Assembly: GCA_965216065.1 (NCBI GenBank)
Contig: CBDCFB010000001.1
Location: 77,802-141,801 of the forward strand
Source: Dehalococcoidia bacterium
GTDB taxonomy: Bacteria; Chloroflexota; Dehalococcoidia; Lucifugimonadales; UBA3495
Reading direction: 5' to 3'
Length of the DNA stretch: 64,000 bases
The translations under genes and the position numbers were made by a program. The notes below the pieces were generated by a model, which was given only the letters and a program-made list of their open reading frames with translations, made no database searches and was not told the DNA's origin. Of the stretch, positions 16,350 to 49,859 are shown piece by piece. How positions within the stretch are numbered: the first letter of the stretch is position 1; the number at the start of each line of letters is the position of its first letter.

Positions 16350-16384
16350 GGTCGGTGTCCTTTCTCTGTCTGTTTTGTGTAGGG

Positions 16385-19402: not shown

Positions 19403-19531
19403 AATGTCCTGTCAGTTGGCATCTATCATCCGTGGGGTAATGAGGCGTATTCGTTGCCAATGTGTTCGAGAATTTCGTCTCTCGGCCTTACCTGTGGTTA
19501 TGACCGATCTTATTTATGGTGAATGGCCGAG

Positions 19532-20176: not shown

Positions 20177-20182
20177 ACGCTC

Positions 20183-20620: not shown

Positions 20621-20646
20621 CAGGTTCCTGTCCTTTATAGATGGGG

Positions 20647-27543: not shown

Positions 27544-28503
27544 ACTTTCCCACGCTGGCGACACCATCGCCGTTTCATTTTTCCAGGGACGAATAGGCAT
27601 GTGGCGGGGGAGGTCCGGTCTTTTCTCGGCGCCTGGCCAGGTGACTGTCCTACCCCCGGCTGGGAGGTTGCGGCCAGCGCCTTCCGCACCGTTCCCAGTG
27701 AGCAGTACATGAACCGGGGCCATGTGGCGCATCCCGCGCCCTCTCGGCCGTCCTCTGGCAATGCTCAACCTGCTCCGGGGCCAAAGCTGGTGGTCGTCCG
27801 ATCCGTTTCCCGCCGGCCTTGGACCGGTCCTAGAAGTCTGGCCGGAAAGCCATCGGCCGGGTTTTGCGCTACGCCAAGCAGACGTATTCCAGTCTTATAT
27901 GGCCCAGTAGTGTATGTAAGACGTTGCAATACCCACCGTTTCATCGATAATCGACGTTAAAAAAACGACTGCTTGGGGAGAATCAGGGTTTCCGGTCAGA
28001 TTTCTAGCTTTATGCGTTCGCTGCCCGAATCCACCTGATAAACCTTTTGAGCTGGTATGAACCACCTGAAGAACTTTGCCGCGGGGCTGCCCTCGCTGGT
28101 GGTACTGGGGCAGGCTGCCAACCGTCTATACTCCGTGCAGAAGCTGCAATTTCCATCCAACCCCTACCTGTCCGCCTGTTGGATGGTCCAACGACTGACT
28201 TCCAGTCGCTTGGCCAGATCCCGCTGGCTCACTCCCTTCGACCGCTCTGCCCGAATGTACTCCCGTTGCTGCTCGGTCAGGCTGGGCCGCCGCCCAGGGA
28301 AGCGCCCCTCGGCCCGCGCCTTCGCCTGGCCGGCGACCGAGCGCTCCCTGATCGAGTTCCGCCACCACTCGCTGAAGGCGAGCACCATCGAGAGCTGGAG
28401 CTTGCCGGTGGGCGTCGAGGTGTCGAAGTCTTCCGCCAGTGACCGGAACTCCACTCCCGCATGGTGCAGGCCCTCGATCACCTGCAGCCCGTAGGTCAGC
28501 CCC

Positions 28504-29963
28504 CTAGTACTACAACGACGGGTTGTTTGGTAGGATAGTTGTCAAGATGATAGTGGGTGGTTTGGGTGATGGATGGGGCGAGTTTCGAGCGGGTTTACGA
28601 CAACTTTCAGGACTTTCACGCCTTCTTCGCGGCCTCCTTCGGCCGCAAGCAGTGGCGGGAGCACAGCCGGAACTATCTTCAGGGGCTGCTGGTGCAGGCT
28701 GGGGAGCGGCGCAACGCCGAGAACCTGTCGGAATCGGTGGGCATCTCGGCCCGGGCGATGCAGCGTTTTCTGACCGAGGCCCGGTGGGACGATGCCGCGG
28801 TCATCGGTCGGCTGCAGGAATACCTGGCCCCCAGGCTGGCTCACCCCGAGGCGGTGTGGGTGTTGGACGGCAGCGACTTTCCCAAGCAGGGACGGAAGTC
28901 GGTGGGGGTAGCCCGGCAGTACTGCGGCAGGCTGGGGAAGGTGGCCAACTGCCAGGCGGGGATGTTCCTGGCCTACGTCAGCCCGCTGGGACAGGCATTG
29001 GTGGACAAGGGGCTGTATCTGCCCGAGAGTTGGATCTCCGACCAGGACCGGTGTGCGGCGGCGGGTGTGCCCGAGGAGCGGCTGAGCTACCGGTCGAAGA
29101 CGGAGTTGGCCTTGGAGCTGCTGGAGCGGGCCCTGGGGTTGGGCCACCTCAAGGCCGGATGGGTTGCCGGGGACGACGCCTTCGGGATGTCGCCGTCCTT
29201 TCGGGAGTCCCTGGCGGGCCTGGGGATGCGCTACGTGCTGGACGTTCCGGGCAGCACTCCGGTCTGGCCCCTGGAGTTGGCTTGGACCAGTCCGGGGTCT
29301 CAGGGGTCCGGGCGCCCCCGCAAGCCCAGGCTCAGGGACGGGCAGCGTCGTACCATGGAGCAGCGCAGTGGCGAGTTGCCGGATAAGGCTTGGCGGGAGA
29401 TAACGGTGGCCCAGGGAAGCCAGGGACCGCGGAGCTATATGTTCAGCGCCCAGCGGGTGCGGGTAACCCGGAAGGGCAAGCCGGGCCAGGAGGCATGGGC
29501 CGTCTACCGCCGAAACCTGGACGGCAGCGAGCCTCGCTACTACCTGTCCAACGCTGCCGAGGATACTCCCCTGGAGACCTTGGCCTATGTGGGCGGTTCC
29601 AGGTGGCCCATTGAAACGGAGTTCGAGACGGAAAAGGGCGACGTGGGCCTGGACGAATACGAGACCCGTAGCTGGTCCGGCTGGCATCACCACATAGCCA
29701 TGTGCCTGCTGGGTGGAGCGTTCCTGCTGGGCCTGCAGCAGGACTGGGGGGAAAAAGATGCCCCGGATCACCCGTCCCCAGGTGTACCGGGTGGTGCGGG
29801 AAATGCTGCCCCGGGAACGGTTCGGACCGGAGGAGTTGCTGCTGTGGCTGGAGGATACGCAGCTACGCAACGAGCGGGCGCGCCGCTCCCACCAGAGACG
29901 CCGCTCCGCCCACCGTGAAGGCAGGATGGAGCCACCACCTTAAACGCGTCGTTGTAGTACTAG
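28504..29963 (+). mobile_element. IS701-family insertion sequence (coordinates include both CTAG copies)
   Basis: Perfect 17-bp termini CTAGTACTACAACGACG at 28504-28520 and inverted at 29947-29963. Removing the element plus one CTAG restores the resolvase frame. Confidence 0.85.
28557..29918 (+). CDS. IS701-family DDE transposase
   Basis: 'WVLDGSDFPKQGRKSVGVARQYCGRLGKVANCQAGMFLAYVS', '...GWVAGDDAFG...' and '...RWPIETEFETEKGDVGLDEYETRSWSGWHHHIAM' are IS701/IS4-like DDE signatures. Confidence 0.85.
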   Translation: MVWVMDGASFERVYDNFQDFHAFFAASFGRKQWREHSRNYLQGLLVQAGERRNAENLSESVGISARAMQRFLTEARWDDAAVIGRLQEYLAPRLAHPEAVWVLDGSDFPKQGRKSVGVARQYCGRLGKVANCQAGMFLAYVSPLGQALVDKGLYLPESWISDQDRCAAAGVPEERLSYRSKTELALELLERALGLGHLKAGWVAGDDAFGMSPSFRESLAGLGMRYVLDVPGSTPVWPLELAWTSPGSQGSGRPRKPRLRDGQRRTMEQRSGELPDKAWREITVAQGSQGPRSYMFSAQRVRVTRKGKPGQEAWAVYRRNLDGSEPRYYLSNAAEDTPLETLAYVGGSRWPIETEFETEKGDVGLDEYETRSWSGWHHHIAMCLLGGAFLLGLQQDWGEKDAPDHPSPGVPGGAGNAAPGTVRTGGVAAVAGGYAATQRAGAPLPPETPLRPP

Positions 29964-30320: not shown

Positions 30321-30514
30321 TCGTGACCAAGGAGCGGGCATTTCGGAACGAATGGCCTTGTCGGTTTCGTTTGCTTTTAGGGTTTGAGGACGCGAGCGGA
30401 ATTAGAGGAAAGGGCTGTAGTCCCTACAAGCAAACGAAACCCCTGGGGAGATTCGGGTCCCGGTAGGAGTGCTTGCCCCGCCCTCCATGCCTGCCTGCTT
30501 CTACCTGTTGCCCC

Positions 30515-33500
30515 CTACTGACCCGGCCCGCTGACGGTGCGCTCCAGGCGGTTGGACAGCTTCTTGTCACCGTCGGCGCAGATGGCCCCCTGCGCGTTGC
30601 AGTCCGTGGTGGCGGGCAGCACGATGGTGACGTCCCCGTTGGAGTCCGGGTTGAAGCTGATCTCCCAGCGGATGTTGCTGCCGCTGACCAGCCGCCGGGC
30701 CCCGTCCATCGTGCCTCCCTCCACCGTGAACGCATGGTCCCGCAGCGTCTTGTAGCTGAAGTTTGTCTCGAGCTCCTCGCTGAAGGAGATCCTGAATTTG
30801 AAGTTGTCGCTGCCGTTGTGGGACGTCGGGACGCTCTCGAAACTTGCCGTCAGCGGAGGCCCCTTGACGGTGAATTTCAGCGGGATGGACAGCATCGTCC
30901 CGTCAGCAGTGCAGATGGCCCCCTGCGCGTCGCAGTCCTCGGTGGCGGGCAGCTCGACGGTAACGTCCGCGTTGGAGTCCGGGCTGACGCTGATCTCCCA
31001 CCGGATGTTGGGGGTGTCACTGTCCCCGTCCAGCCGCCGGGCCCCGACCACAGTGCCGCCCGTCACCGTGAACGCATGGTCCCGCAGCGTCTTGTAGCTG
31101 AAGTCTTCCTTGGGGTCCTCGCTGAACCGCAGTTCGAATTTGAATGCGTCCTGCCCGTTGTGCGACTCCGGCTTGTCGTGGATGGCGGCCGTCAGAGGAG
31201 AGGGCGAGGGCGCGGCAGCCACTGCTACGGTAACGTCGCTCGTACGGGTCTCCTGGTTCCCCCAGTCGTCGGTGAAGCTCACCCGCACCTTGATGGTCTT
31301 GTCTTCGTCATCGGCGCCAACAGTGTAGGTAGAACCGGTCGCGTCCTGGATATCCGTGTCTTCGGTCCCATCGTTTGCTATCCACTGGTAGGTGAAGGTC
31401 GCGTTGGTCAGCCCGTCGCTGTCTGATATGTTCGATGTTGATGCGGTCAGCGTCTGTCCAACCTGCACCGTACCGCTGATCGCGGGCGCTCCGGTCGCGA
31501 CGCTGTTGGGTATGGCAGCCACTGCTGCAGTCGCCTCGCTGGTCAGCGACTCGTCGTTGCCCGCGTCGTCAGTGAAGGTGATCCGCACCTTGATGGCCTT
31601 GCCTTCGTCTGCGGCCGCCAGGGTGTAGGTCGAGCCGGTCGCGTCAGTGATATCCGTGTCGTCGGCCAGCCACCGGTATGTGAAGGAGGCGTTGATCAGG
31701 CCGTCGGAGTCGGATATGTCCGTGGTATCCGCCGTGAGCTCCTCACCCACCTGCGCCGTGCCTGTGATGGTGGGCTCGCCGGTGGCGAGGGTGTTGGAGG
31801 CCGTCACTGCTGCAGTCGCCTCGCTGGTCAGCGACTCGTCGTTGCCCGCGTCGTCAGTGAAGATGATCCGCACCTTGATGGCCTTGCCCACGTCGGCGGA
31901 AACCAGGGTATAGGTAGAGGCCGTCTCCCCGGATATGTCGGTGTCGGTGTTCCCATCGCCGCGAATCCACTGGTAGCTGTAGGAGACACTGGTCAGCCCG
32001 TCCTCATCGGCAATGCCCGAGATGTCGGCCGTCAGCGTCTCCTGCACCTGGGCCGTCCCGCCGATGGTGGGCAGGCCCGTGGCCGGACGGTTGACCGCCG
32101 CAGCCACCGCTCCGGTCGCCTCGCTGGTCAGCGTCTCGGCATTGTTCCTGTCGTCGGTGAAGGACACCCGCACCTGGATGGTCTGCCCCTGCTGGCTGGT
32201 GGTGAGGGTGTGACTGGAGTCGGTGGCCCCGTCGATGTCCGACCCTCCGGCTATCCACTGGTAGCTGTAGGGAACGTTGGTCAGCCCGTCCTCGTCGGCG
32301 ATGCCCGACGTGTCCGCCGTCAGCGTCTGGTCCACCTGTACCGTCCCGCTGATGGTGGGCAAGCCCGTGGGAGCACGGTTGTCCGCCGCAGCCACCGCCG
32401 CGGTCGCCGCGCTGGTCAGCGTCTCGACGTTGTTGGCGTCGTCGGTGAAGGACACCTTGACCTTGATGGTCTTGCCCTGGTCGGCAGGCACAAGGGCGTA
32501 GGTGGAGCTTTTCTCCCCCTCTATGTCGGTGTCGTTGCTCCCGTCGCTGCGAATCCACTGATAGCTGTACGACACGTTGTCCAGCCCATCCCCGTCGGCG
32601 ATGCCGCTCGTATCCGCCGTCAGTGTCTCCCCCACCTGGGCCGTTCCGCTGATGGTGGGCGCGCCGGTGGCCAGACTGTTGGGACGGGCTGCCACCGCAG
32701 CCGTCGCCGCGCTGGTCAGAGTTTCCTCGTTATCTGCATTGTCGGTGAAGCTCACTCGCACCTTGATGGTCTTGCCCTGGTCGGCAGCAACGAGGGTGTA
32801 GGTCGAACCTGTTGCGTCGGTAATGGCCGAGTCGTCCGCCAGCCACTGATAACTGAAGGTGGCATTGTCCAACCCATCCTGGTCCGCGATGCCCGAGGTG
32901 GAAGCCATCAGCGTCTCGCCCACCTGGACCCTCCCGCTGATGATGGGCAGGCCCGTGGGCGCAGTGTTGGGCTTGGCAGCCACCGTTGCCGTCGCCGCGC
33001 TGGTCAGAGTCTCCTCGTTATCTGCATTGTCGGTGAAGCTCATCCGCACCTTGATGGTCTTCCCAACGTCGTCGGCATCCAGGGTGTAGGTCGAAGAGGT
33101 GGCGTCCTGGATGTCCGTCCCACCGGCAATCCACTGGTAGCTGAACACGGCGTCGTCCAGCCCGTCGGCGTCGGCAATGCCAGACGTGTCCGCCGTCAGG
33201 GTCTCGCCCACCTGCACCGTACCGTTGATGGTCGGCTGGCCTGTTGCCGGAGTCCCCATCACGGTCAGGCTGAGTTCCACCTCGTCCCCGACCGACCAAT
33301 CGACCGTCCCCTTATCCCACTGGTAGGTGTGCACGAACCCGGTCTTCGTGGTTGAGGCGTCCTCGGAGGAGAATGGGACTCCACCCACGTTCAGGGTGAA
33401 GTTGGTGCGAAGCCTCCGGTCCAGTCCGAAGGACAGCAGCCCGTCGTCGCCCTCGACAACCATCTTGACGGTGTAGTCATCGCCGCCCAGCGTGAATTCG

Positions 33501-36500
33501 GTCTGTGAGAGAGCGCCCGTGCTATGGAGCAGGTTGTAGCCTGAGTGAGTTTCTCTTGTGCCCGCCGTCAGGGTGGCGGACCAGGCCAGAAGGGTCACGG
33601 CCTCAGTCAGAGCGCTGGTCAGCGTCTCCTCGTGGCTCGCGTCGTCGGTGAAGGACACCCTTACCTTGATGGTCCTGCCGACGTCGTCGTACACCAGGCT
33701 GTAGGTGGAGCTGGTTGCGTCCTGGATGTCGGTGTCGGCGTTCCCGTCGTTCCTGATCCACTGGTAGGCGAAGGTCGCGTCGTCCAAGCCGTCTTCGTCG
33801 GCTATGCCCGACGTGTCCGCCGTGAGCGTCTCTTCCACCTGCGCCGTGCCGCTGATGGCGGGCGCTCCGGTGGCCGGGCTGTTGGCTGCTGCCGCCACAG
33901 TTGCGGTCGCCGCGCTGGTGAGCGTCTCTCCATTACTGGCGTCGTCGGTGAAGCTCACCCGCACCTTGATGGTCTTGCCAACGTCGTCGTCAGACAGCGT
34001 GTAGGTGGAGCCGGTTGCGTCCTGAATGTCCGCGTCGGCGCTCCCGTCGTTCCGTACCCACTGGTAGCTGTAGCTGGCGTTGTCCAGCCCGTCCGCATCT
34101 GCGATGCCCGTCGTGTCCGCCGTCAGCGTCTCCCCCACCTGCACCGTGCCGCTGATGGTGGGCAAGCCCGTGGGCGCAGTGTTGGGCTTGGCAGCCACCG
34201 CTCCGGTCGCCTCGCTGGTCAGCGTCTCTGCGTTGTTGGCGTCGTCGGTGAAGGACACCTTGACCTTGATGGTCTTGCCCACGTCGGCGGAAACCAGGGT
34301 ATAGGTGGAGTCCGTCTCCCCGGCTATGTCGGTATCGGTGTTCCCGTCGCTCCGAATCCACTGGTAGCTGAAGGAAACGTTGGTCAGCCCGTCGGCATCG
34401 GCTATTCCCGTCGTGTCCGCCGTCAGGGTCTGGCCCACCTGGGCCGTCCCGCTGATGGTGGGCAGGCCCGTGGGCGCAGTGTTGGGCTTGGCAGCCACCA
34501 TTGCCGTCGCCGCGCTGGTCAGTGTTTCCAGGTTACTCGCGTCGTCGGTGAAGGACACCTTGACCTTGATGGTCTTGCCCACGTCGCTGCCGGACGGCGT
34601 GTAGGTGGAGTCCCTCTCCCCGGCTATGTCGGTATCGGTGGTCCTGTCGCTCCGAATCCACTGGTAGCTGAAGGAGACGTTGGTCAGCCCGTCTTCGTCG
34701 GCGATGCCCGAGGTGTCCGCCGTGAGGGTCTGGCCCACCTGTACCGTCCCGCTGATGGTGGGCAGGCCCGTGGCAGTACGGTTGGGCGCCTCAGCCACCG
34801 CAGCGGTCGCCGCGCTGGTCCGCGTCTCCGCGTTGTTGGCGTCGTCGGTGAAGGACACCTTGACCTTGATGGCCTTGCCCACGTCGGCGGAAACCAGGGT
34901 ATAGGTGGAGGCCGTCTCCCCGGCTATGTCGGTGTCGGTGTTCCCGTCGCTGCGAATCCACTGGTAGCTGTAGGAGACACTGGTCAGCCCGTCCTCATCG
35001 GCAATGCCCGAGATGTCGGCCGTCAGCGTCTCGCCCACCTGGGCCGTCCCACTGATGGTGGGCAGGCCCGTGGCCGGACGGTTGTCTGCCGCAGCCACCG
35101 CTCCGGTCGCCTCGCTGGTCAGCGTCTCTGCGTTGTTCCGGTCGTCAGTGAAGGACACCCGCACTTGGATGGTCTGCCCCTGCTGGGTGGTGGTGAGGGT
35201 GTGACTGGAGCCGGTGGCCCCGTCTATGTCCGACCCTCCGGATATCCACTGGTAGCTGTAGGAAACGTTGGTCAGCCCGTCCTCATCGGCGATGCCCGAC
35301 GTGTCCGCCGTGAGGGTCTGGTCCACCTGGGCCGTCCCGCTGATGATGGGCAGGCCCGTGGCCGGATGGTTGTCCGCCGCAGCCACCGCAGCGGTCGCCG
35401 CACTGGTCAGCGCCTCCTGGTTTTTCGCGTTTTTGGCGTCCTTGGAGAAAGAGACCCTGACCTTCAGGGTCTTACCCACGTCGCTGCCGGACGGCGTGTA
35501 GGTGGGGTCCGTCTCTCCATCTATGTCGGTGTCGGTTTCACCCTCGTTCCGAATCCACTGGTAGCTGTACGACACTTTGGCCTGCCCGTCGTCGGCGGCG
35601 ATATCCGACGTGTCCGCCCTCAGCGTCCGGCCCACCTGCGCCGTTCCGGTGATGACGGGAAGGCGATCGGTCAAATTCGTCACCGTCACCGTTACTTCCA
35701 GTTCGGCGGTGTTGCCTTCGCCATCCCCGGCTTCCACCGTCACCTCGTAAACATTGTTGCTCCCTGAATCGGTCGGGCTCTCATAGTCCGGCGGGTCGAT
35801 GAAGGACAGCACACCTGTTTCGCTGATTTCAAAAGCGCCACGGTCAGTTCCCGACAGGCCCCACGCCACATCGTTTCCTTCCGGATCCGTAGCGCGGTAG
35901 GTATACAGGTCGGACGTCCCATTCTCCTTGTATGTGAAGGTGGCAGTGCTGCCGCCTCTGAACTCCGGCCGCTCGTTCACCGCCTCTACCCTTACCGTCA
36001 CCTCCAGCGTCCCGTAATACCGCCCGTCGGAGGCCCTCACCGTCACCAGGTACTCGTTGTCCCGGTTCGAGTCTGCTGGCCGCTCAAAGTCCGGAACATT
36101 CCTGAAACTCAATTCCCCGTCCCCATTGATGGTGAAGTCCCCACCGTCGGTCCCCGTGGCGCTCCATCTGGTTATTTCGGCGTCCGGGTCCTCTGGATCT
36201 GTGGCAGAGTAGTCAAACAGCACTCCTTCGCTATTTTCCCTTACGGTGATGCCGGTATTGGCAGGAGTTTCCTCAATCTCCGGCCCCTCGTTCAGATCCG
36301 TCACCGCCACCATCACTTCCAACCCGGCCGTGTTGGACTGGTCATCTCTGGCCAGCACGGTCACCAGGTATTCGTTGTCCCCGTCGAAATCATCGGGGTT
36401 TTCAAAGTCCGGGGGGGTCTTGAAAGTAAGTACGCCGCCATCCTCGCTGATTTCAAAAGCGCCACGGTCAGTTCCGCCAACCTCCCAGGTGAGATCGTCC

Positions 36501-39500
36501 CCCTCCGGGTCCGTGGCCCGATAGGTGTACAGCGCGGAAGTGCCGTTCTCCCGGTGGGTGAATGAAGTCCGGCTGCCACTCCTGAACTCCGGCCCCTCGT
36601 TTACCGCCTCCACGGTCACGGTGACGTCCAAAGTCCCGTAGTACCGGCCGTCGGAGGCCCGGACGGTCACCTCATACTCGTTATCCCGGTTGGAATCGGC
36701 CGGCCGCTCAAAGTCAGGCGGGTTGCGGAAGGTGAGTTCGCCACCCTCGTTGATGGTAAAGTCCCCACCATCCCTGCCGGCGACGCTCCAGCGGGTTACG
36801 TCGGCCGTGGTATCCTCCGGGTCCTCGCCGGTGTAAGTTGCCACTATGCCCTCGAAGTTCTCCGAAACCGTGCGGGCCGTCGACCCCGTTATCTCCGGCC
36901 CCTCGTTGACGTCGGTGACCATGATGGTGACGTCCAAGGTGCCCCGATATGTCCCGTCGGAGGCGACCACCGTGATTTCGTACTCATTATCGGGGCCAGA
37001 ATCCGCCGGCTGCTCATAGTCCGGCTCCTCCTTGAACGTCAATACTCCTTCATCGACGTCAAAGTCATCGCGGTCGTCTCCCTCCAGAGACCAGGTGATC
37101 ATCGCCCCCCGGTCCATGTCCCTGGCCTGGTAGGTATAGAGGCGGGTGTCCGTGGTGGTGTTCTCTCTGAAGCTCAGGGTCTGGCTTCCAGTAACCACCG
37201 GCGCATGCTCGTTTTCGTCGATCACCGCAATCTTCACGTCCAGCGACCCGTATCTATTGCCCCGGTCGTAGGCGCGGATGGTGACCAGGTACTCGTTGTC
37301 CCGGTTAGAGTCCGCCGGGCTGTCGTAGTCCGGCGTGTCCCGGAAGGTGAGTTGGGCAGTATTCCGGCCCGTCTGTTGGCTCGTATCGGTGATGGTGAAG
37401 TCCCCGGCGTCCGACCCCGCCAGGCTCCAGCGTGAAACGCCGGAGGCCGGCTCCTCCGGGTCCCTCGCGGTGAAGGTCGCCACCACCCGGTCCACATTTT
37501 CGTCGTAGGTGAACTCCGTCTGTCCCGAAGGAGCCGTTATTTCGGGCCCTTCAGGCACCTCCGTTACGCTGACGGCGACATCCAGGGTGCCCTCCCGTCC
37601 CTGGTCATCCGTCGCAACCACCGTCACCAGGTACTGGTTGTCCCTGTCACTATCTGCCGGCAGTTCATAGTCCGGCACTTCTTTGAAGGTCAACACTCCG
37701 GTATCGCTGATGACAAAGCCGTTTCCGTCATTGTTGCCGTCCTGTCCCCTGACCGACCACACGATCGTCGTGTCACGGTCTGCGTCGGTGGCCCGGTAGG
37801 TGTACAGGCGGGTTGCGACCGCAGTGTTCTCCCTGAAACTCAGGCTCTGACTCCCCGTTACCACCGGGTCCGCCTCGTTCTCGCCCCGAACTGTTACCGT
37901 CACGTCCAGGGACCCGTACCTGTTGGTCACGTCGTAGGCCCGGACGCTCACCAAGTATTCATTGTCCCGGTTCGAGTCCACCGGACGGTCATAGTCCGGC
38001 GCATACCTGAAGGTAAGTTCACCGTTTTCGTTGATTGAGAAGTCCCCGCCGTCACTGCCGGACAAGGACCAGCGGCTGATGTCTGAGCCCTCCGGGTCCC
38101 TGGCGGAGTAGGTTGCCAGGGTTTGCAGCGATGGGTCCTGGGTTGGGTCGGTGTATTCCTGGACCGTTATGGTTTCCCGTCCCGAAACCTCCGGCCCCTC
38201 ATTCACGTCGGTTACGGTTACGGTTACCTCAAAGGCACCGGTGCTGAAATTGTCGTCCCTTGCCTGCACCGTAACCTGGTAATCATTGTCCCTGTCGGCA
38301 TCTCCCTCGATGTCAAAATCGGGCGGATTCCTGAAGGTGAGGACACCCCTGTCGCTGATATCAAAGAGATGTCCGTCCGTTCCGCCGGGCGCTATCCAGG
38401 TGAAGGCATCCCCCTCCGGGTCCGTGGCCCGGTAGGTATGGATGGTCCCGGTACCGTTCTCCTGGAAGGTGCGGGCGTCGCTGCCGGTGATCACCGGCGG
38501 CTCGTTGGCGGCGGTAACGGTTACGGTCACGTCGTATGAACCGTACTTGCCTCGATTGTCGTAGGCGCGGATGGTCACCAGGTATTCGTTATCCCGGTTG
38601 GAGTCGGCTGGCCGATCGACATCCGGCGGGTACCTGAAGCGAAGGCCGGCCGTGTTCCGGCCGGTTTGCTCCCTCGTATCGGTGATGGTGAAATCGCCGC
38701 CGTCGGAGCCGTAGAGACGCCAGCTTGATATGGAGTCCCCCTCCGGGTCGGTGGCGCTGTAGGTGGCATTGGCCAAACTCTGATGGAATTCCTGGATGGT
38801 ATAGGAGGGCGTGCCAGTGATCTCCGGTCCCTCGTTCAGTTCGGTGACGGTGATGGTGACCATTAGCTCGCCGGTCAGTCCCCGGCTGTCGGTGGCCACC
38901 ACCTCCAGTTCGTACACGTTGTCCTGGCCCGAATCCCTGGGGTTCTCATAATCCGGCGCTTCCCTGAAGCTGAGGGCTCCCTGCTCGTTCATTTCGAAGA
39001 GATGCCCATCGGCGCCGGAGGTTGACCAGGTGATGGTGTCGCCGAGGTCCGCGTCGGTGGCCCGGTAGGTGTAGATGGCCGAGGTCGTGTTTTCACTGAC
39101 CGTTCGGTTGTCGCTGCCCGTTACCACCGGCGCCTCCTCGTTCACGTCGGTAACGGTCACCGTCACGTCTAGGGAGCCATACCGGTTGCCCGCATCGTGG
39201 GCTCGAACAGTCACCAGGTATTCGTTGTCCCGGTTGGAATCGGCCGGTTTGTCGTAGTCGGGCACGTCGCGGAAGGCCAGCACCCCGGTTGCACTGATCT
39301 CAAAGTCGCCGCCGTCGCTGCCGGAGAGACTCCAGCGGGTTACGTCGTCCCCCTCCGGGTCGGTCGCAGAGTAGGTGGCCCCGCTCAGCTCCTGGCCTTC
39401 AACGACGGTGTAAGCCCGTCTGCCCGAGACCTCCGGCCCCTCGTTTACGTCGGTAACGGTAACGGCCACTTTCAATTCGCCCTCAAGTCCCCGGTCATCT

Positions 39501-41662: not shown

Positions 41663-41731
41663 CGTAACGTCACGAGAGCCGTAGTACCGACGAGCTCGTG
41701 GTGGTGATGGTGGGCGCCTCGTTCACCGGCG

Positions 41732-44700
41732 TTACCCCGCCGAGACCTGTACCGCAAGGCTATACACGTTGTCCCGGTTGGAGTCGGCAGGTCTCTCATA
41801 GTCGGGTGTGGCGCGGAAAGTAAGCTCTCCCTGTTCGCTTATGCTGAAGTCCCCGCCGTCGGTTCCCGTCAGCCGCCAGGTCGGCACCACGGCCAAGTCT
41901 CCCTGGCCAGCGGCCGAATAGGTCGCCAGAAGACCCTCGAAGTTTTCCGGCCGGTCAAGAGCGGAAGGACCTGAAATCTCGTCCAGATCATCCACCGTCA
42001 CCGCGACTTCAAGGTATCCGTAGTACCGGCCGTCGTAAGCCCGCACCGAGAGGGTGTATATGTTGTCCCGGTTCGAGTCCGCCGGCCGCTCGTAGTCCGG
42101 TGTGTTCCGGAACTTTAATTCGCCATTCTCGTTGATGGTAAAGTCGCCGCCGTCCGTCCCCGAGGTGCTCCACCGGTTTATGGGGGTGCCGGGACTCTCC
42201 GGGTCGCTGCCCGTGTAACTGGCCAGCACCTGCTCCGTGCTCCGGTTCTCCGTGGATGAGAGAGTCTCGCTGCCCGACACTGTCGGCCCCTCGTTCACGT
42301 CGGTAACGTTGACCATGACAGCCACGGATCCGGTATGCGTGCCATCACTGGCCTGAACCGTCACGTTATAGATGTTGTCGCCGCCCAAGTCCCCAGGAAA
42401 CTCGAAGTCCGGCGGACTGTTCTCACTGAACGAGAACTCCCCCCGCTGATCGATGGTGAAGAATCTACCGTCCGCACCTCCCACCGACCAGGCAATGCTG
42501 CTTCCCTCCGGGTCCGTGGCCCGGTAGGTGTACAGGCGGGAGGTCCGGTTCTCCGGTTGCCTCAACCCGGTGGCGGACGAGCTCGTCGTGGTGATGGTGG
42601 GCGCCTCGTTCACCGGCGTTACCGTAATCGTCTCTTCAAAGGTGCCGTAGTACCTCCCGTCATACGCCCGCACCGTCACCTCGTACACGTTGTCCCGGTT
42701 CGAGTCGGCAGGGCGTTCGTAGTCCGGCGAGTAGCGGAATCGCAACTCACCCTGTTCGTTCATGACGAAGTCCCCGCCGTCCCGGCCCGAGGTATCCCAT
42801 CGGGTGATCTCGGCGCTGGTGTCTTCCGGGTCAATGGCCATGTACCTGCCCAGCACCTGGGTCTGGCCGTGGTTTTCCGCCACGCTGCCCGGGGCACTGC
42901 CAACCCGGGTAATCTCCGGTCCCTCGTTCACGTCCGTAACGGTTATGGTGAAGGCCAGACTGTCGGAGTGGCCGTCTTCGTCGATGGCCACCACCGTCAG
43001 TTCGTAGTCATTCTGCCCGTCCGAATCCGAGGGGCTCTCAAAGTCCGGCGGGCTTACGAAGGACAGTTCGCCGCTGTCGCTGAGCGCAAAGGCGCTGGCG
43101 TCCGTCCCCGTGTGCGACCAGGCAATGGGGCCTCGCTGCGGGTCGGAGGCGCGGAAGTTATAGACCGTTGAGGTACCGTTCTCCCGGTAGGTGGTGGGCG
43201 GTCTCCTGGTGCTGATGGTGGGCTCCACGCTCTCAGCGTGGTTGGTGACCGTAACTGTGACATCAAAGTTGTCGGTCAATCCCTGTTCATCGGTCGCCAC
43301 CACCGCTATTTCGTACAGGTTGTCCCCGTTTGAATCTGTCGGGTTCTCAAAGTCGGGTGGACTGGTGAAGGTCAGCACACCGCGGCCGCGGCTATCGCTG
43401 GTGATGGTGAAGGCGTGGGCGTCCGTGCCGGTCACAGACCAAGTGATGATTCCCCGCTGCGGGTCGTTGGCGCTGTAGGTATAGACCGTGCGCGCGCCGT
43501 TTTCCTGGTAGGTCAAGGCAGGCCTGCTGGTGGTGGTGATGGTCGGCTCCTCGGTACCGGTGGAGTTTGCTACGTTAACCGTCACCTCCAGCCTGTCAAA
43601 ATTGAACCCGTCGTCCCGGGCCTGGACCGTGACCAGGTATTCATTGTCCCCGCTGGCATCCGCCGGATTCTCAAAGTCCGGAACATCGGCAAAGGTCAAC
43701 ACTCCAGTTACGCTGATATCGAAATCTCCCCCGTCCGTGCCCGACACTGACCAGGTAATTGTCCTGCCCTCCGGGTCCGCGGCCTGGTATGTGTACAACG
43801 CGTGAGTGCTGTTCTCCGGGTAGGTAAAGGAGGTTCTGCTCTTGCTGCGGGAAGTGAACTCCGGTGCCTCGTTCACATCCCGCACCGTCACCGCAACATT
43901 CAGCATCCCCGTGTACTGCCCGTCCGAGGCCCGCACCGCAACCAGGTATTCGTTGTTGCGGTTGGAGTCGGCGGGACTTTCGTAGTCCGGTGTATTCCTG
44001 AAAGTCAGCACCCCGGTCTCGCTGATGCTGAAGTCCCCGCCGTCGGTGCCCGACAGGCTCCAGGTGAAGGTGGTGCTGGCACCTTCCGGGTCGCTGGCCG
44101 AGTAGGACCCACTGAAGTTCTCGTCATTCTCGTCAATCGTGCGGGTGTCCAGTCCGCTCACCGTCGGCGGTTCGTTGACCGGTGTGACTGTCACGGTTAC
44201 GTCCAGCGTGGCGGTGTTAAGTCCATCGTCCTGCGCCCTCACCGTCACCAAGTACTCATTACCGTTGGCCCCGGCCGGACTCTCATAGTCGGGAGAACTC
44301 CCGAACGTCAGCGCGCCCGTCTCGCTGATCCTGAATTCATTTCCGTCTGGCCCTCCCACCGACCAGGTAATACTGCTTCCCTCCGGGTCCGTGGCCCGGT
44401 AGGTGTACAGGCGCGACGTCCGGTTTTCAGGTTGCCTCAACCCGGTCGCGGACGAGCTCGTGGTGGTGATGGTAGGCGCCTCGTCCACGGGCGTTACCGT
44501 GATGATGATGTCCAGGGAACCGTAGGCATTCCGGTTGTCGTAGGCCCGCACCATCACCAGATATTCGTTGTCCCGGTTCGAGTCCGCAGGCCGTTCATAG
44601 TCCGGTGTATTCCGGAAGGTCAGCACCCCGGTCTCGCTGATGAGGAAGTCCCCGCCGTCGGTCCCCGACAGGCTCCAGCGGGTTACGCTGTCCCCCTCCG

Positions 44701-47700
44701 GATCTGTTGCGAGGAAGCCCGCTCCCGACAGTTCCTGGTTCTCCTCGACCGTGTAGCTGTTCCTGCCGGATACCGCCGGCCCCTCATTCACGTCGGTGAC
44801 GGTAACCGTCACGGAAAGTGTGGCGGTGTTGAACTGGTCGTCCTGCGCCTGCACCAACACGTTGTATACGTTGTCCCCGCCTGAGTCCCCAGGGATCTCG
44901 AAGTCCGGCGGACTGGTCTCACTGAACGAGAACTGTCCCCGCTCATCGATGGTGAAGAATCTACCGTCTGTACCTCCCGCCGACCAGGTAATACTGCTTC
45001 CCTCCGGGTCCGCCGCCCGGTAGGTGTACAGGCGCGACGTCCTGTTCTCCGGTTGCCTCAATCCGGTCGCGGACGAACTAGTCGTGGTGATGGTCGGCGG
45101 TGCATTGACGTCGGTGATGGTCACCGTCGCCGTGTCGGGACCTCCCTGTAAATGCGGGAGGCTTGGGTTGGAGTAGTTCAGGATTACCGTGAAGTTCTCG
45201 TCCGGCTCGTCGACGGTGTCATCGATGATGGAGACGCTGATGTCCCGGGTTGCCTGGAAGCGGAACTGGCCCCCCACGTCTGTGCGCGTGAAGTCGCCCT
45301 GGCCGAAGCTGAAGCTGCTGGTCAGTCTCCGATAGTCCGAGCCTTGGGTGGCGGTGCCGTCGGCCGTAGTCGCGGACAGGGCGACGTTGAAACCGCTCTC
45401 CGGAATTCTGTCCGACGTGGTGGTGGCCCGGGCCTGCAGGGTGACCGTTCTCGCATGCTCGTCGACGCTCACGAACGATTGGTCCCAGCTGATGGTGACG
45501 GGTACGAAATCGTTGTCGGTGATCTTTACGCTCATAACGGCTGGTCCGCCCTGCAGGTGAGGCGGACCGGGATTTGCGTACTCAATGGTTACCGTGAAGT
45601 CCTCCTCGTCTTCGTCGGATGTGTCATCCTGAATGGGCACCTGTACCTGCTTTACGGCGCGATAGCGGCGTTCGCCGTTGACGGTTACCCGGCTGAAGTC
45701 GTTCCGGCTGAAAGTGACGGTATCGTCCACCTGCGTATAGTCGCCGGGCTGGGTCGCGCTGCCGTCAGACGTACGGATGGAGGCGTCGAAGGAGAACCCG
45801 TCCTCAGGTCGCTTGTCCTCAGTGGTGACGGCGTAGGCACGAAGTGTGGCGCTGCCGGCGTTCTCACGAACCGTTACGTCCGGCTGTTCCCAGCTGAGAG
45901 TAACTGGAACGTGTTCGTTGTCCTTGATTGTGACGACTGCCGTAGAAGGTCCTCCCTGGAGATGCGAGAGGCCGGGAGTCGCGTAGGCCAGCCTTACCCT
46001 GAAGGCCTCGTCCGATTCATCCGCTGTGTCGTCTATGATGGCTACGGTGAAATCCCTGGTTGCTCGGTATCGCTGCTGGCCGTTCACGTCGGTCTGGCTG
46101 AAGTCGCCCGCGACAAAGGTCGCGGACGAGGCCGGAGTCGTGTAGTCGTCGCCTTGGGTCGTGCCGCTATCGGTGGTGGTTAGGATGACGTCAAAGGTGA
46201 AGTCAGCCTCCGGCGGCGAGTCCAGTGTGGTTGTGAAGACTGCTCTCAGGACCACGCTCCCCGCGTCCTCCGCCACCTCAAAAGAAGTCTCTTCCCACTG
46301 CAGGGTTATGGGTATATCGTCCGGCAGCGGTGTACCGGTCTCCGTGCCGGACCATGCTCCATCCCCCGCGGAGTTGACGGCCCGCACCTGTATATCGTAC
46401 TCCGTCGTGTTTGTGAGATTGGAGATGACATATCGAAGGTCGCCGCTTCTCCAGGCGTTGTCCCGCACCGTCCAGTTGGATTCCATAGTCTCGTCTTCGC
46501 TGGTCTCGATGTAGCGCACGTCGTAGGCTGTGATGACCCCGCCACCCGTGTCAGCGGGGGCAGTCCAGACGACAGCCAGGGTCCTATCGCCGCGAGTGAT
46601 GCTTAAAATGGATGGTGCCGACGGCGCGACCGTGGTGGGTTCCTCGGCTTCCGCTTGGGACCAGGGGCCGTGTCCGGAATCGTTGTGGGCCCGCAGTTGA
46701 AATTCGTACTTCACTCCGCCTGTCAGTCCGGTGATGGTGTGGTTCCGGTTGCTCGGCGTCCCCACGCCCGTCACCACAGACCAGTTGTCATCGCTCTTGT
46801 CCGTAGCATTGTCTCTGATGTATCGCAGGTCGTAGGAGGTGATGGCCGTCTCCCCAGTTTCGGTCGGCGCTTTCCAGTCAATTTCGAGCGTGCCTCCACC
46901 CGGAGTCACAACGTCGATTTCAGGCGCACCGGGAATCAAGCCATGACCGTAAATGGTGAGACCCCACGACTTGAGAGCTCCTCTATCATTTCTTTGAAGG
47001 TCTTTAATCCTCAGCGTCCACTCACCGGCCGCGTCCTCGCCCAGATGGCGGGCCGAACCAAAGCGGAACTCAGTGGTCAACGACCCGAATCTAGGGGCGG
47101 AAGTGGACAGCGTTGAAACGGCCCCTGAGGGCGAGACCAGCTCAACGGTCAGATCCCGGAAGGCAGGATGGCTGAAGTGGGCGTTGACCTCCACAAACTC
47201 GACGAACTCCACAAACGGGTCGATGGTCAGGCTGGTGGTTACGGTGGTAGGCGTACCGGACGACGACAGGTCGGGGATTGGCAGGTTGATGACGCTTGAC
47301 TCAGAGGTGATTTCCCTAAAGTCGCCGACGTTGGTCCAGCCCGGAGCCAGGTCCACGGCCGCCTTGGCGTCCACCATGCCGAAGCCGTATTCGTGGTTGA
47401 AGTTGTAGCGGTCCGTGGTGGACCCGTATTTGAAAGCTCCTTCCACCCAGCCGGTGTTGTCCGGGTCGTTCTTGCGGGCGGAGGCCGCCAGGATGAGCTT
47501 GACGTCACGCCAGGTCAACGCGCTGTTTGCTTCTCGAATCAGTGCTACCACGCCGGAGACTATGGGAGTGGCGGCGCTGGTGCCGCCAAAACTGCCCCTA
47601 TACCGGTGTCCGTTGTCGGTGGTGGCTATCCTGGGCTGGCCCACCCTACCGCTGCTGGACGGCCCGCACACCCACAGATTTGCGCCTGCTTCCGAGTAGC

Positions 47701-49780
47701 TGCTTCTTATGTCGTCGTGCCCAACCGCGCAGACGGCAGTCACGGCATAGAAATTCGAATACTCGTCCAGAGTGGAGTAGTCGAAGTCACCTCCGTTGCC
47801 GGCAGCCCAGGCGTAGAAAACGCCCTTCCCGCCGTATCCGGTTGTGACGCCGTATTTGACCGCCACTTCCCAAAGTTCAGTAGCAGGCTCCGGATGGCCG
47901 GAGTCTCCAGGGCCCCAGCTGTTGTTGGAAATGGCCGTGGTCGCCGCGTTGCGCGACATGGCGTCTGCTTCGTTGGCGTCGGTATCTTCCACCAGAAAAT
48001 TGTATCCGTATATCTTGGCCCCGGGGGCTACGCCTCGCATACCGAGGCTGTTGTCCTTCGCCGCTATGAGGCCGGCCACGGCGGTGCCGTGGTCTTCGAA
48101 TGGATGGTATATATCAGTCAGGTCGGGGTCATAGTTGTGATTGAAGGAGGAAAGGACGTTGCCCGTGAGGTCCTCGTGTTGGTAGTGCATTCCATCGTCC
48201 ACCACCGCCACGTTGATGCCGGAGCCTGTGTATGTGGGCCACACCTCCTCGACCCTGATATCCTGACCGGCGCTGTTGCGAAACTGGTTGTCGTTGTTCA
48301 GGTGCCACTGGCAGCCGTAGAGCGGGTCGCTTATGCCTGCACTCCTGGGAATGCTGGAGCAGCGGTTTGCGAAATAGGTGTAGCTGCCCTCAACGACTGC
48401 CCTGACGGTGTAACGGCCTGTGTCTGTGGCATCCTTGCCTGCCACCTTCAAGTGGTATGTGCCCGCGTCTAATTTACCCTGAAAGTAGAATGTGTCGTCA
48501 AAGTGAACCGAATTTACAGGGGCCGCGAGGTCGTTTTCATCGGTCAGAGCGCCACTGATGTTGGTGACGCCACTCGCTCCACCGATGATCACGTAAGTTG
48601 GCTCGTCAAGGGTCAGGCTGAAGTAGTCCTCGTCGCCGGCCGGGTCTATATTTCCACCCGCCGTACCGCCGAGGGTCAGCGGCTGAGCGTCGGCGACGAC
48701 GCTGCCAGGCTCGGTGATGGCCGTAGCAAATACTGTGTAAGGCCCATCGGAACTATATGCGAAAGAGCTCACCTTGACGTAGTACACCCCGGCGGCGAGG
48801 TTCTCCCGGATGAGAAAGTTCGTCCAGCCGCCGGGAAGATAGCCGTCGTCGTTGGATGCTATCACCGTGCCGTTGCTCCTTTGCAGCTCACCAACCGTAT
48901 CCGGGAACCCGGATGCGCGAATGGCTACCTCCGTAGCTTGGGATAGTTCCAACTTGAAGTAGTCCCGATCGTTTTCCGGGTCAATTGTGCCGCTCGCAGA
49001 GCCGTTGAGATTCAGAGTGGCAGCGTTGCTCCTGGACGTGGTATCCGGGATCTCCCTGACCCTGAGGATATAGGGTTCGTCAGTAGATCCGTAGCCGGTG
49101 ACCTTGATGTAGTACGTCCCAGACTGGAGTCTGCGCCACAGGAAGAAATTTTCCGGGTTGGGCAGCACGGCGCCTCTATCACTGCTCTCGATGGACATGC
49201 CGTCGCTGTCCAGCAGCTCACCCACTGTATCCAGGTCGCCCAGGGTATATATCCAATAATCGGCAGTCCTTGACACGCTGAAACTGAAGTAGTCTTCATC
49301 GTCAGCGGGGTCAATGGCTCCCCACACCCTGGCGCCCGCGGTCACGCTCGTGGCTGCGGCGCGAGTGTCGCCGTGGTCCGCGGGGGTTGCGCTGGTTGTG
49401 GCCGACCAGGCGCCGGCGACATCGTCTTCGTCAACCGCGCGCACCTGCACGTCATACTCCGTGCCGTTGGTCAGGCCGCTAATGGCGTAGGCCAGACTGC
49501 CACTGCCCTCTTTCCAGGCGTCCTCCTCCACAGTCCAGTTGGAGTCCACCGTCTCATCCGCGCTGGTCTCGATATGACGCACGTCGTAGGCCGTGATTCC
49601 GGTCTCGCCGGCCGGAGCGGCCCAGGCAAGGGTGAGTATGGTATCGCCAGAGGTTACAGAGTCGATGGTTGGTGCGGCGGGCACAGACTGCGCGCTGGCG
49701 TAGCCCAGTGCCAGCACCAGGCAGAGCAGGGCAAATCCCGCCGCCATCAGTAGTCTGGTGGGCCTGAGCATTCTTGTCAT
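41732..49780 (-). CDS. Giant surface protein, 5' portion: signal peptide, FN3, 3x PPC, kexin-like S8 protease + P-domain, 2x FN3, 3x Calx-beta, ~11 cadherin-like repeats
   Basis: Start taken at ATG 49780 (MTRMLRPTRLLMAAGFALLCLVLALGYASA/QS). PPC motifs are DEDYFSFSV, DRDYFKLEL and DEDYFSLTL. The S8 triad is VAVVDDG / HGTAVAG / GGTSAATP. The P-domain is 'LTVELVSPSGAVSTL...GEWTLRIKD...LKSWGLTIYG'. Calx-beta-like units carry '...GDDYT...F..GD......I.IIDDT.DE.DE.F.V.L'. Confidence 0.8.
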   Translation of the reverse strand: MTRMLRPTRLLMAAGFALLCLVLALGYASAQSVPAAPTIDSVTSGDTILTLAWAAPAGETGITAYDVRHIETSADETVDSNWTVEEDAWKEGSGSLAYAISGLTNGTEYDVQVRAVDEDDVAGAWSATTSATPADHGDTRAAATSVTAGARVWGAIDPADDEDYFSFSVSRTADYWIYTLGDLDTVGELLDSDGMSIESSDRGAVLPNPENFFLWRRLQSGTYYIKVTGYGSTDEPYILRVREIPDTTSRSNAATLNLNGSASGTIDPENDRDYFKLELSQATEVAIRASGFPDTVGELQRSNGTVIASNDDGYLPGGWTNFLIRENLAAGVYYVKVSSFAYSSDGPYTVFATAITEPGSVVADAQPLTLGGTAGGNIDPAGDEDYFSLTLDEPTYVIIGGASGVTNISGALTDENDLAAPVNSVHFDDTFYFQGKLDAGTYHLKVAGKDATDTGRYTVRAVVEGSYTYFANRCSSIPRSAGISDPLYGCQWHLNNDNQFRNSAGQDIRVEEVWPTYTGSGINVAVVDDGMHYQHEDLTGNVLSSFNHNYDPDLTDIYHPFEDHGTAVAGLIAAKDNSLGMRGVAPGAKIYGYNFLVEDTDANEADAMSRNAATTAISNNSWGPGDSGHPEPATELWEVAVKYGVTTGYGGKGVFYAWAAGNGGDFDYSTLDEYSNFYAVTAVCAVGHDDIRSSYSEAGANLWVCGPSSSGRVGQPRIATTDNGHRYRGSFGGTSAATPIVSGVVALIREANSALTWRDVKLILAASARKNDPDNTGWVEGAFKYGSTTDRYNFNHEYGFGMVDAKAAVDLAPGWTNVGDFREITSESSVINLPIPDLSSSGTPTTVTTSLTIDPFVEFVEFVEVNAHFSHPAFRDLTVELVSPSGAVSTLSTSAPRFGSLTTEFRFGSARHLGEDAAGEWTLRIKDLQRNDRGALKSWGLTIYGHGLIPGAPEIDVVTPGGGTLEIDWKAPTETGETAITSYDLRYIRDNATDKSDDNWSVVTGVGTPSNRNHTITGLTGGVKYEFQLRAHNDSGHGPWSQAEAEEPTTVAPSAPSILSITRGDRTLAVVWTAPADTGGGVITAYDVRYIETSEDETMESNWTVRDNAWRSGDLRYVISNLTNTTEYDIQVRAVNSAGDGAWSGTETGTPLPDDIPITLQWEETSFEVAEDAGSVVLRAVFTTTLDSPPEADFTFDVILTTTDSGTTQGDDYTTPASSATFVAGDFSQTDVNGQQRYRATRDFTVAIIDDTADESDEAFRVRLAYATPGLSHLQGGPSTAVVTIKDNEHVPVTLSWEQPDVTVRENAGSATLRAYAVTTEDKRPEDGFSFDASIRTSDGSATQPGDYTQVDDTVTFSRNDFSRVTVNGERRYRAVKQVQVPIQDDTSDEDEEDFTVTIEYANPGPPHLQGGPAVMSVKITDNDFVPVTISWDQSFVSVDEHARTVTLQARATTTSDRIPESGFNVALSATTADGTATQGSDYRRLTSSFSFGQGDFTRTDVGGQFRFQATRDISVSIIDDTVDEPDENFTVILNYSNPSLPHLQGGPDTATVTITDVNAPPTITTTSSSATGLRQPENRTSRLYTYRAADPEGSSITWSAGGTDGRFFTIDERGQFSFSETSPPDFEIPGDSGGDNVYNVLVQAQDDQFNTATLSVTVTVTDVNEGPAVSGRNSYTVEENQELSGAGFLATDPEGDSVTRWSLSGTDGGDFLISETGVLTFRNTPDYERPADSNRDNEYLVMVRAYDNRNAYGSLDIIITVTPVDEAPTITTTSSSATGLRQPENRTSRLYTYRATDPEGSSITWSVGGPDGNEFRISETGALTFGSSPDYESPAGANGNEYLVTVRAQDDGLNTATLDVTVTVTPVNEPPTVSGLDTRTIDENDENFSGSYSASDPEGASTTFTWSLSGTDGGDFSISETGVLTFRNTPDYESPADSNRNNEYLVAVRASDGQYTGMLNVAVTVRDVNEAPEFTSRSKSRTSFTYPENSTHALYTYQAADPEGRTITWSVSGTDGGDFDISVTGVLTFADVPDFENPADASGDNEYLVTVQARDDGFNFDRLEVTVNVANSTGTEEPTITTTSRPALTYQENGARTVYTYSANDPQRGIITWSVTGTDAHAFTITSDSRGRGVLTFTSPPDFENPTDSNGDNLYEIAVVATDEQGLTDNFDVTVTVTNHAESVEPTISTRRPPTTYRENGTSTVYNFRASDPQRGPIAWSHTGTDASAFALSDSGELSFVSPPDFESPSDSDGQNDYELTVVAIDEDGHSDSLAFTITVTDVNEGPEITRVGSAPGSVAENHGQTQVLGRYMAIDPEDTSAEITRWDTSGRDGGDFVMNEQGELRFRYSPDYERPADSNRDNVYEVTVRAYDGRYYGTFEETITVTPVNEAPTITTTSSSATGLRQPENRTSRLYTYRATDPEGSSIAWSVGGADGRFFTIDQRGEFSFSENSPPDFEFPGDLGGDNIYNVTVQASDGTHTGSVAVMVNVTDVNEGPTVSGSETLSSTENRSTEQVLASYTGSDPESPGTPINRWSTSGTDGGDFTINENGELKFRNTPDYERPADSNRDNIYTLSVRAYDGRYYGYLEVAVTVDDLDEISGPSALDRPENFEGLLATYSAAGQGDLAVVPTWRLTGTDGGDFSISEQGELTFRATPDYERPADSNRDNVYSLAVQVSAG
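42013..42625 (-). repeat. 613-bp near-identical direct repeat, copy B
   Basis: See 41047-41659. Confidence 0.85.
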
Positions 49781-49859
49781 GGCACAGATGGCTCTGAAGA
49801 GACGTTGGTGTTCACGGGAACAGTGGGGCACAACGACCCAGAGTTCTCACAGGCAACAA

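Follow-up and report, generated by a model that had tools for sequence, protein, structure and literature searches.

A probable giant surface protein of a Dehalococcoidia bacterium, with a kexin-like protease head, an exchangeable repeat tail and a conserved lipoprotein partner

The stretch of DNA analyzed here, referred to below as the window, comprises 64,000 nucleotides of a contig (CBDCFB010000001.1, positions 77,802 to 141,801) in the Dehalococcoidia bacterium assembly GCA_965216065.1. Its minus strand carries two adjacent open reading frames (ORFs) that an earlier note, made from the letters alone, had read as one unit of about 6,400 codons. We find it probable that the two form a single gene whose product is giant, Sec-exported and either surface-bound or extracellular, and that this gene is built from a conserved head and an exchangeable tail, paired with a lipoprotein gene, and interrupted in the present copy. 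The head cassette, of about 1,560 residues, would comprise an FN3 domain, three PPC domains, an S8 protease with its P-domain, two more FN3 domains and three Calx-beta domains. The tail would here consist of 30 cadherin-like repeats, 14 A9-type immunoglobulin-like (Ig-like) repeats and a terminal twin beta-sandwich. Such a protein would form a long, calcium-stiffened stalk that unites adhesion modules with a protease, the latter probably cutting after basic residues at the cell or host interface. The lipoprotein, as the other member of a conserved gene pair, would serve as a tethered external chaperone, temporary inhibitor or dock of the head, and the copy interrupted by 53 nt would be a null or truncated allele peculiar to this strain, or else a local error of assembly. 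Three of these features, namely the lesion, the swapping of tails between close relatives and the conserved lipoprotein partner, had been missed in the earlier note.

Both ORFs lie in one frame. ORF1 (41732..49831) encodes 2,699 aa if counted from a GTG, and ORF2 (30515..41662) encodes 3,715 aa. The likely start of ORF1 is the ATG at 49780, from which its product has 2,682 aa. This start lies 80 nt past the stop codon of the lipoprotein gene and is also called in the related loci L074 and L076-L085. The position 49780 had been given before as the end of the gene and is indeed this ATG, but the residue numbers that accompanied it are counted from the GTG at 49831 instead. When both ORFs are read through, the result is a frame of 6,421 codons in which the only internal stops are codon 2683 (TAA, 41734-41732) and codon 2686 (TGA, 9 nt further on). 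The product opens with a Sec signal peptide (M1-A30, ending ...GYASA and followed by QS) and is strongly acidic, with 1,035 Asp and Glu residues versus 420 Lys and Arg, as expected for calcium-binding extracellular repeats. An exact look-up of the ORF1 product gave no match.

Pfam and direct reading of the sequence bear out the inventory drawn up in the earlier note, from the signal peptide through the FN3 domain, the three PPC domains and the S8 protease with P-domain to the two FN3 and three Calx-beta domains. Three PPC-like G.IDP..D.DYF motifs are readable in the sequence. The Peptidase_S8 match scores 138 bits, and P_proprotein (PF01483) follows directly after the catalytic domain at ORF aa 878-960 with 69.5 bits (cut-off 21). 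The profile check that the earlier note had proposed thus recovers the S8/P-domain as well as Cadherin, and the kexin-like nature is backed by structure-database matches: in a PDB search, the S8 plus P-domain region best matches Kex2 (E-value 1e-58) and furin (9e-55), both with the two domains aligned, while subtilisins are far weaker. The catalytic triad named earlier as D545/H581/S752, counting from GTG 49831, corresponds to D528 (48197-48199), H564 (48089-48091) and S735 (47576-47578) when counted from the ATG, and N662 is the oxyanion residue. D528, H564, N662 and S735 align to Kex2 D175, H213, N314 and S385, and the motifs DDG, HGT, GNGG and GTSAA are all found in the S8 domain. Among 72 related loci, every one that covers the triad and the oxyanion Asn retains them, except L068, which has Ser at the oxyanion position. 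This implies that catalysis is under selection. Window residues D626, D667, D672 and E697 align to Kex2 D277, D320, D325 and E350, which we take, going by Kex2 numbering, to be its S1 and calcium-site residues. These acidic residues make a basic P1 specificity, i.e. cleavage after Arg or Lys, reasonable to expect. Judged by its residues, the protease is kexin/furin-like (S8B) and predicted to be catalytically competent.

The alignment to Kex2 and furin (MEROPS S8B) runs end to end through the catalytic and P-domains and includes the acidic S1 and calcium-site residues. Nevertheless, the window protein differs from these enzymes in being bacterial, in lacking the N-terminal autocatalytic prodomain that marks S8B, and in carrying its protease inside a chain of about 6,400 aa, with PPC/FN3 domains before it and Calx-beta/cadherin arrays after it. 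Pfam returns no S8_pro-domain or I9 match for a prodomain in cis. The third PPC-like domain abuts the start of the catalytic domain (...SDPLYGCQWHL).

The case for a single gene comes from near-identical sequences. An exact look-up of the neighbouring lipoprotein finds the same organism in at least 10 ENA analyses, including those that hold L076 and L077. L076 is a 136-kb contig, 99.9% identical to the window, whose name style suggests a HiFi metaMDBG assembly, and L077 is a scaffold from another project, 99.7% identical. Across the junction of the two ORFs both read GTCTCGGACGGCGGGTACTACGG, translating to ...VQVSDGGYYGSRDVTVTVTP...; their 8-nt version of the site that has 53 nt in the window gives ...VQVSDGGYYGSRDVTVTVTPVNEAP..., a normal repeat end. 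L076 is stop-free through its first 3,307 codons and its product is called at 6,925 aa, while the L077 product runs 3,533 codons to the end of the scaffold (called at 3,533+ aa). Because L076 and L077 are intact across the junction, the two ORFs are to be read as one gene, broken here by a 53-nt lesion that is either real or mis-assembled, and the unit of about 6,400 codons stands. Two real, separate genes, one for a secreted protease-adhesin of 2,682 aa and one for a cadherin/Ig protein of 3,715 aa starting from GTG 41662, would agree with the pair of stop codons present in the window. This arrangement is scarcely credible, however: ORF2 begins inside a cadherin repeat, with no signal peptide and no Shine-Dalgarno-like ribosome-binding sequence just upstream, the gap is an out-of-frame duplicated fragment, and the two assemblies that are 99.7-99.9% identical are continuous without that fragment.

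Whether the lesion in this single gene is a real strain-specific change or a consensus error appears to us about equal. That the interruption, and perhaps the repeat copy number too, is an artefact of assembly or consensus, the true gene being intact and possibly longer, as in L076, is a serious possibility that we place a little short of even. The lesion falls exactly on a boundary of the tandem three-cadherin unit, within an array of 99%-identical 0.9-kb units, and it holds a misplaced, out-of-frame copy of the unit (and repeat) start that is found 79 nt downstream. L076 has three unit boundaries, 921 nt apart, versus one in the window, i.e. at least two extra units, and the window-specific junction words are present in neither L076 nor L077. 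Unit copy number either varies between strains or was collapsed in assembly. On the other hand, the net gain of 45 nt, one base off the adjacent copy, fits real slippage or template switching equally well, and nonsense or frameshift lesions are common in relatives from independent assemblies. The lesion may instead be real, with an even chance in our estimate, making this copy a strain pseudogene or a truncated allele that would secrete only the head and 11 cadherin repeats, as part of ongoing decay or turnover. Consistent with this, differing nonsense (TAG, TGA) or frameshift mutations break at least 9 of about 72 related loci, and insertion sequence (IS) elements flank the locus, one of which interrupts the neighbouring paralogue in L076. 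Both ORFs are nevertheless otherwise stop-free over 8 and 11 kb, so that any inactivation must be very recent, and an intact allele occurs in other samples. Recoding or read-through of the stops, suggested by single in-frame stops in three relatives, was considered and rejected; these are different codons at different sites and look like ordinary point mutations of W, G and Y codons to nonsense.

When species-representative genomes were scanned, 71 head-bearing loci emerged, all from uncultured metagenome-assembled genomes (MAGs). Nearly all are Dehalococcoidia, the others being a few Acidobacteriota (Ca. Multivorans, Ca. Azophilus, Holophagales), one Anaerolineaceae and one unclassified Chloroflexota MAG. 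The head-bearing ORFs in the scanned genomes are mostly 1,850-2,660 aa long, with products above 4,800 aa in each of L044, L046, L052 and L058. L049, at 4,778 aa, has the order FN3, S8, P, FN3, Calx-beta and cadherin array as in the window gene, and the same architecture is seen in L026, P0396, L044, L046, L052 and L058. An exhaustive protein search found the head cassette in 6,754 cluster representatives at E<=1e-30, with full-head matches in proteins of up to 5,302 aa (large examples range from 4,016 to 5,302 aa), including P0396 (4,016 aa), which has a cadherin array. True lengths of relatives were taken from locus ORFs and from this search; the homologue search apparently listed matches only up to about 1.7 times the query length, and the lengths of 1,100-1,750 aa and below 400 aa found there are not proof of short relatives. 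The window gene is the top of the size range in a large, unnamed family and no one-off. The earlier description of a protease head on a stalk of about 45 domains as unusual was therefore overstated, given so many cluster representatives with the head and the cadherin arrays of P0396 and L049.

Several observations on individual family members may be recorded here. P0370 (4,495 aa) contains three S8 plus P-domain units in a single chain, with Calx-beta, FN3 and PPC domains behind them. L025, L027 and L040 each have a single in-frame stop (TGA, TAG and TGA, respectively) soon after the head, at different sites, as a result of which public protein sets list a 'protease' of about 1,100-1,250 aa and a separate tail protein. 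In L073, a related contig of 3.2 Mb, a serpin gene has a twin-module protein on one side and a cadherin-repeat gene of 5,943 aa on the other (L073 11577-21068); the presence of a protease inhibitor beside such a large adhesin may bear on the protease theme.

The exchange of tails is best illustrated by L074, which is syntenic with the window (Na/Pi transporter, FN3/A9 gene, lipoprotein, head gene). Between window positions 59430 and 45881 the two share 94-96% DNA identity. The L074 head-gene product, however, has 2,150 aa and carries a DUF11/FN3 tail, and the two proteins are alike only as far as aa 1562, at the first cadherin repeat. The neighbouring paralogue of 1,222 aa has a 3' end that matches the last Ig repeats and the twin module of the giant gene at 85-90% DNA identity, and the L074 ortholog of this paralogue is, at its 3' end, 85% DNA-identical to window 30464-32086. 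The cadherin array of the window is only about 50% identical to arrays on more distant heads. The different tail of L074 and the paralogue-like 3' end imply a mosaic gene in which the head cassette is conserved and the tails are exchangeable; on these alignments, tails are swapped between close relatives, in an IS-bearing locus. Turnover of these giant genes appears high. A chimeric assembly, in which a head and a cadherin/Ig tail from different genes or strains were wrongly joined, would likewise leave L074, the closest differently tailed relative, with only the head in common, and would suit the resemblance of the 3' end to the paralogue. We consider it very improbable. Four contigs (L076-L079), which stem from different ENA analyses and assemblers, reproduce the passage from head to cadherin array colinearly at 99.5-99.9% identity (99.5-99.7% for L078 and L079), and a fifth, L080, has a matching called product of 2,427 aa. 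Furthermore, the same architecture recurs in L049, P0396 and L026, the frame is kept across 19 kb, and the L077 product extends for 3,533 codons beyond the junction, which, if it is colinear, would take it over the boundary between cadherin-like and Ig-like repeats.

Repeats of the tail were counted with hidden Markov models built on the window's own repeats. These give exactly 30 cadherin-like and 14 Ig-like copies, where about 30 and 14 had been proposed. The cadherin-like array spans aa 1558-4702, repeat 11 being the one cut by the lesion. It is matched by Pfam cadherin profiles (PF00028, 132.5 and 280.9 bits, plus PF17803), and the acidic motifs VNExP, DPEG and DSNRDN recur at repeat borders. 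From its sequence, the array would act as a calcium-binding adhesive stalk. Tandem Repeats Finder reports a 300-nt period with 14.1 copies over the Ig-like repeats. The 108-aa domain that splits the Ig array matches no Pfam or NCBIfam family and has no second copy in the window. Pfam matches to Ribosomal_S28e, Arylsulfotran_2, InlK_D3 and Emfourin were discarded as noise from the repeats.

The last 223 aa of the protein form the twin module, whose two copies had been described before as an unnamed C-terminal module; both copies were found, and no Pfam or NCBIfam model matches them. In an AlphaFold2 model (pLDDT, the predicted local distance difference test, 91.6) the module folds into two beta-sandwiches, and each of them includes a single helix and a conserved pair of Cys residues. 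The module has more than 1,000 homologues, and in all 23 that were aligned it is C-terminal, with sequences mostly ending in GPG(Q/G). As a candidate for a known anchor it was set aside, as Foldseek returned only generic Ig-like matches (invasin InvE, S-layer SbsC) at E-values of about 1e-4 and TM-scores of at most 0.42. A short minus-strand ORF elsewhere in the window (61808-62425) has one copy of the module at 60-65% aa identity and is probably what is left of a further surface-protein gene from this family.

In 67 of the 71 loci, including those of Acidobacteriota, in which the heads are 45-50% identical, the head gene is immediately preceded by the lipoprotein gene. The lipoprotein has 1,690 homologues but no match in Pfam, NCBIfam or PDB. 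Its lipobox is LGGC in the window (family consensus LAGC), and its tail follows the consensus ...GVE[IV]SSPNW-x-RE-x-x-[PT]-[KR], the last residue being Lys or Arg in 61 of 68 sequences. As the head has no propeptide of its own, the partner is likely to act on it from outside, and the most economical reading is that it may be a membrane-tethered chaperone, temporary inhibitor or dock. A parallel exists in ASP of Aeromonas sobria (PDB 3hjr/3wqb, matched at E 1e-32), which is likewise a bacterial kexin-like S8 protease with a P-domain and without a propeptide. ASP needs a chaperone, ORF2, encoded by the adjacent gene, and the C-terminal region of that chaperone binds around the ASP catalytic site and inhibits it temporarily (PMC5638518). 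The window gene and its relatives resemble this system in that a propeptide-less kexin-like protease is accompanied by a conserved adjacent gene, here in two phyla. However, the partner in the window is encoded upstream, is a lipoprotein and lacks detectable similarity to any PDB chain, whereas ASP is a free enzyme of 600 aa and not the tip of a giant repeat protein.

A more specific mechanism can be proposed, although we regard it as rather unlikely in this full form. The partner would be a membrane-tethered propeptide acting in trans, whose ...SPNW-x-RE-x-x-[PT]-[KR]-COOH tail would occupy the active-site cleft with the terminal Lys or Arg in the S1 pocket. It would fold and inhibit the head and tie the giant protein to the cell by its N-terminus, so that stalk and twin module point outward, and release or activation would be regulated. 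If true, a trans-propeptide lipoprotein would be a new way to anchor or control a giant surface protein in symbionts belonging to the Chloroflexota and Acidobacteriota.

A number of results weigh against one or another part of our interpretation, beginning with the partner. It is not recognizable as an I9/S8 propeptide by Pfam at E<=10, by PDB profile search or by hhalign, the hhalign targets being subtilisin and furin/PC1 propeptides. Its AlphaFold2 model is of low confidence (pLDDT 38.5), with a beta-alpha-beta-beta-alpha arrangement as the best part; Foldseek gives only non-significant ferredoxin-like and RRM matches, and no covariation is seen between its last residue and the S1 residues of the head. 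As for the giant protein, searches for anchor signals found no LPXTG, transmembrane tail, RTX, type IX secretion or PEP-CTERM signal. The C-terminal end, ...RLERTVSGPGQ, has no hydrophobic tail of the kind found in LPXTG-type sorting signals. Similarly, the features of RTX proteins exported by type I secretion are absent, as evidenced by the lack of a Pfam HemolysinCabind match, the twin beta-sandwich at the C-terminus and the Sec signal at the N-terminus. For the segment 39484..30515, where the cadherin array ends and the Ig array and twin module follow, support from other assemblies comes only from the called product lengths of L076 and L077. In view of the broken loci described above, many copies of the family, possibly including that of the window, may be decaying. 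Finally, the evidence for a sponge origin of the bacterium is indirect: L047, a relative, belongs to a series of samples from which sponge-symbiotic Poribacteria were also recovered.

Surface subtilases, giant repeat adhesins and a kexin-like protease with an external partner are already known; what is new here is the conserved pairing of lipoprotein and protease. Lactococcal PrtP (lactocepin) and streptococcal ScpA are surface S8 proteases with FN3 or Ig-like spacer domains after the protease. The window protein is like them in this succession, but PrtP and ScpA are of the S8A type, have a propeptide in cis and an LPXTG or similar anchor, measure about 1,100-2,000 aa and have neither a P-domain nor cadherin arrays. 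LapA and MpIBP (both RTX adhesins), SiiE and bacterial cadherin-like proteins share with the window protein a stalk of thousands of residues made of calcium-binding Ig-like or cadherin-like repeats. Unlike these giant adhesins, the window protein has no RTX repeats, type I secretion signal or known anchor, and does have an active-looking protease head and a lipoprotein partner.

The locus defines a recurrent two-gene module, a lipoprotein and a propeptide-less proprotein-convertase-like protease with an exchangeable adhesin tail, that is present in thousands of metagenomic proteins, mostly of Dehalococcoidia MAGs, and in at least two phyla. Host association is plausible, and the bacterium is probably a symbiont of marine sponges. 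Cadherin and FN3 genes are reported to be enriched in sponge-associated MAGs, FN3 particularly in Chloroflexota (PMC8163846). Genes rich in such domains have repeatedly been reported as enriched in sponge symbionts, none with a worked-out mechanism. A literature search on Ca. Multivorans and sponges gave nothing useful. The module offers testable handles in the soluble head, the C-terminal Lys/Arg of the partner, and the natural tail-swap and copy-number variants between strains that are 95-99.9% identical. Since the genes are often split in assemblies, catalogues that count separate 'protease' and 'cadherin' genes misdescribe them.

Table 1. Positions of the giant gene, its parts and its neighbours in the window
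Feature	Position	Strand	Basis or remark
Start codon and Sec signal peptide	49691..49780	minus	direct sequence reading; MTRMLRPTRLLMAAGFALLCLVLALGYASA followed by QS
N-terminal FN3, then three PPC-like domains	48356..49690	minus	Pfam fn3; PPC match just below threshold
Kexin/furin-type S8 catalytic domain and P-domain	46952..48226	minus	Pfam S8, P_proprotein; PDB matches
Two FN3 and three Calx-beta domains, end of head cassette	45110..46933	minus	Pfam; limit of L074 similarity
30 cadherin-like repeats, ~102 aa each	35675..45109	minus	own-repeat model; Pfam Cadherin, Cadherin_4
Two 99%-identical ~635-nt copies, 41996-42631 and 41030-41665	41030..42631	minus	part of three-cadherin tandem unit
Lesion	41687..41739	minus	53 nt here vs 8 nt (ACGGCGGG) in L076 and L077; creates TAA and TGA
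14 A9-type Ig repeats, 7 (33560-35659) and 7 (31187-33235)	31187..35659	minus	own-repeat model; Tandem Repeats Finder; Pfam IG_AIR9/SCAB-Ig
108-aa insert domain splitting Ig array	33236-33559	minus	sequence LLAWSATLTAGTRETHSGYNLL...
C-terminal twin module, 2 x ~110 aa, and stop codon	30515..31186	minus	DCxAxGAIC motif in each; ends ...VSGPGQ
Partner lipoprotein, 276 aa	49860..50690	minus	lipobox, Pro/Thr-rich linker, conserved ~150-aa C-terminal domain ending ...SPNWGREAKPK
Paralogue, 1,222 aa	51739..55407	minus	FN3, three A9 Ig repeats, same twin module (90% aa identity)
IS element, DDE_5 transposase	28503-29963	plus	
IS element, IS630-like DDE_3 with HTH	25515-26558	minus	
HmaC/DUF499 ATPase	20647-23583	minus	Hma-like island
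HmaB/DUF1156 methylase	16385-19402	minus	Hma-like island
ThsB-like/PDC-S66 TIR protein	15486-16349	minus	Hma-like island
SNF2 helicase with PLD nuclease domain	12135-14963	minus	Hma-like island
LRR protein, 291 aa	5405..6280	minus	LRR_1, LRR_4, LRR_8

The LRR and FN3 genes that the earlier note had seen near the giant gene are real. The TIR gene, which it had grouped with them in a speculative comparison to the eukaryote-like or adhesion gene sets of host-associated bacteria, is no evidence for a eukaryote-like set and sits in an Hma-like phage-defence island (11296-23583, minus strand) that also has small unnamed ORFs. Rfam and tRNA scans of the window were empty. Opposite the giant gene, plus-strand ORFs of up to 740 aa occur at 32210-35767 and 42335-48472. 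They have no family matches, are probably not genes and would arise from the high G+C content and the repeats; in L077, the gene caller annotated such antisense ORFs in place of the true frame. In the case of the IS elements, a copy of the DDE_5 element (98.8% identical) lies inside the neighbouring FN3/A9 gene of L076 (L076 5560-7005). Its location at a different site in a contig so nearly identical to the window implies that the element is active within the population.

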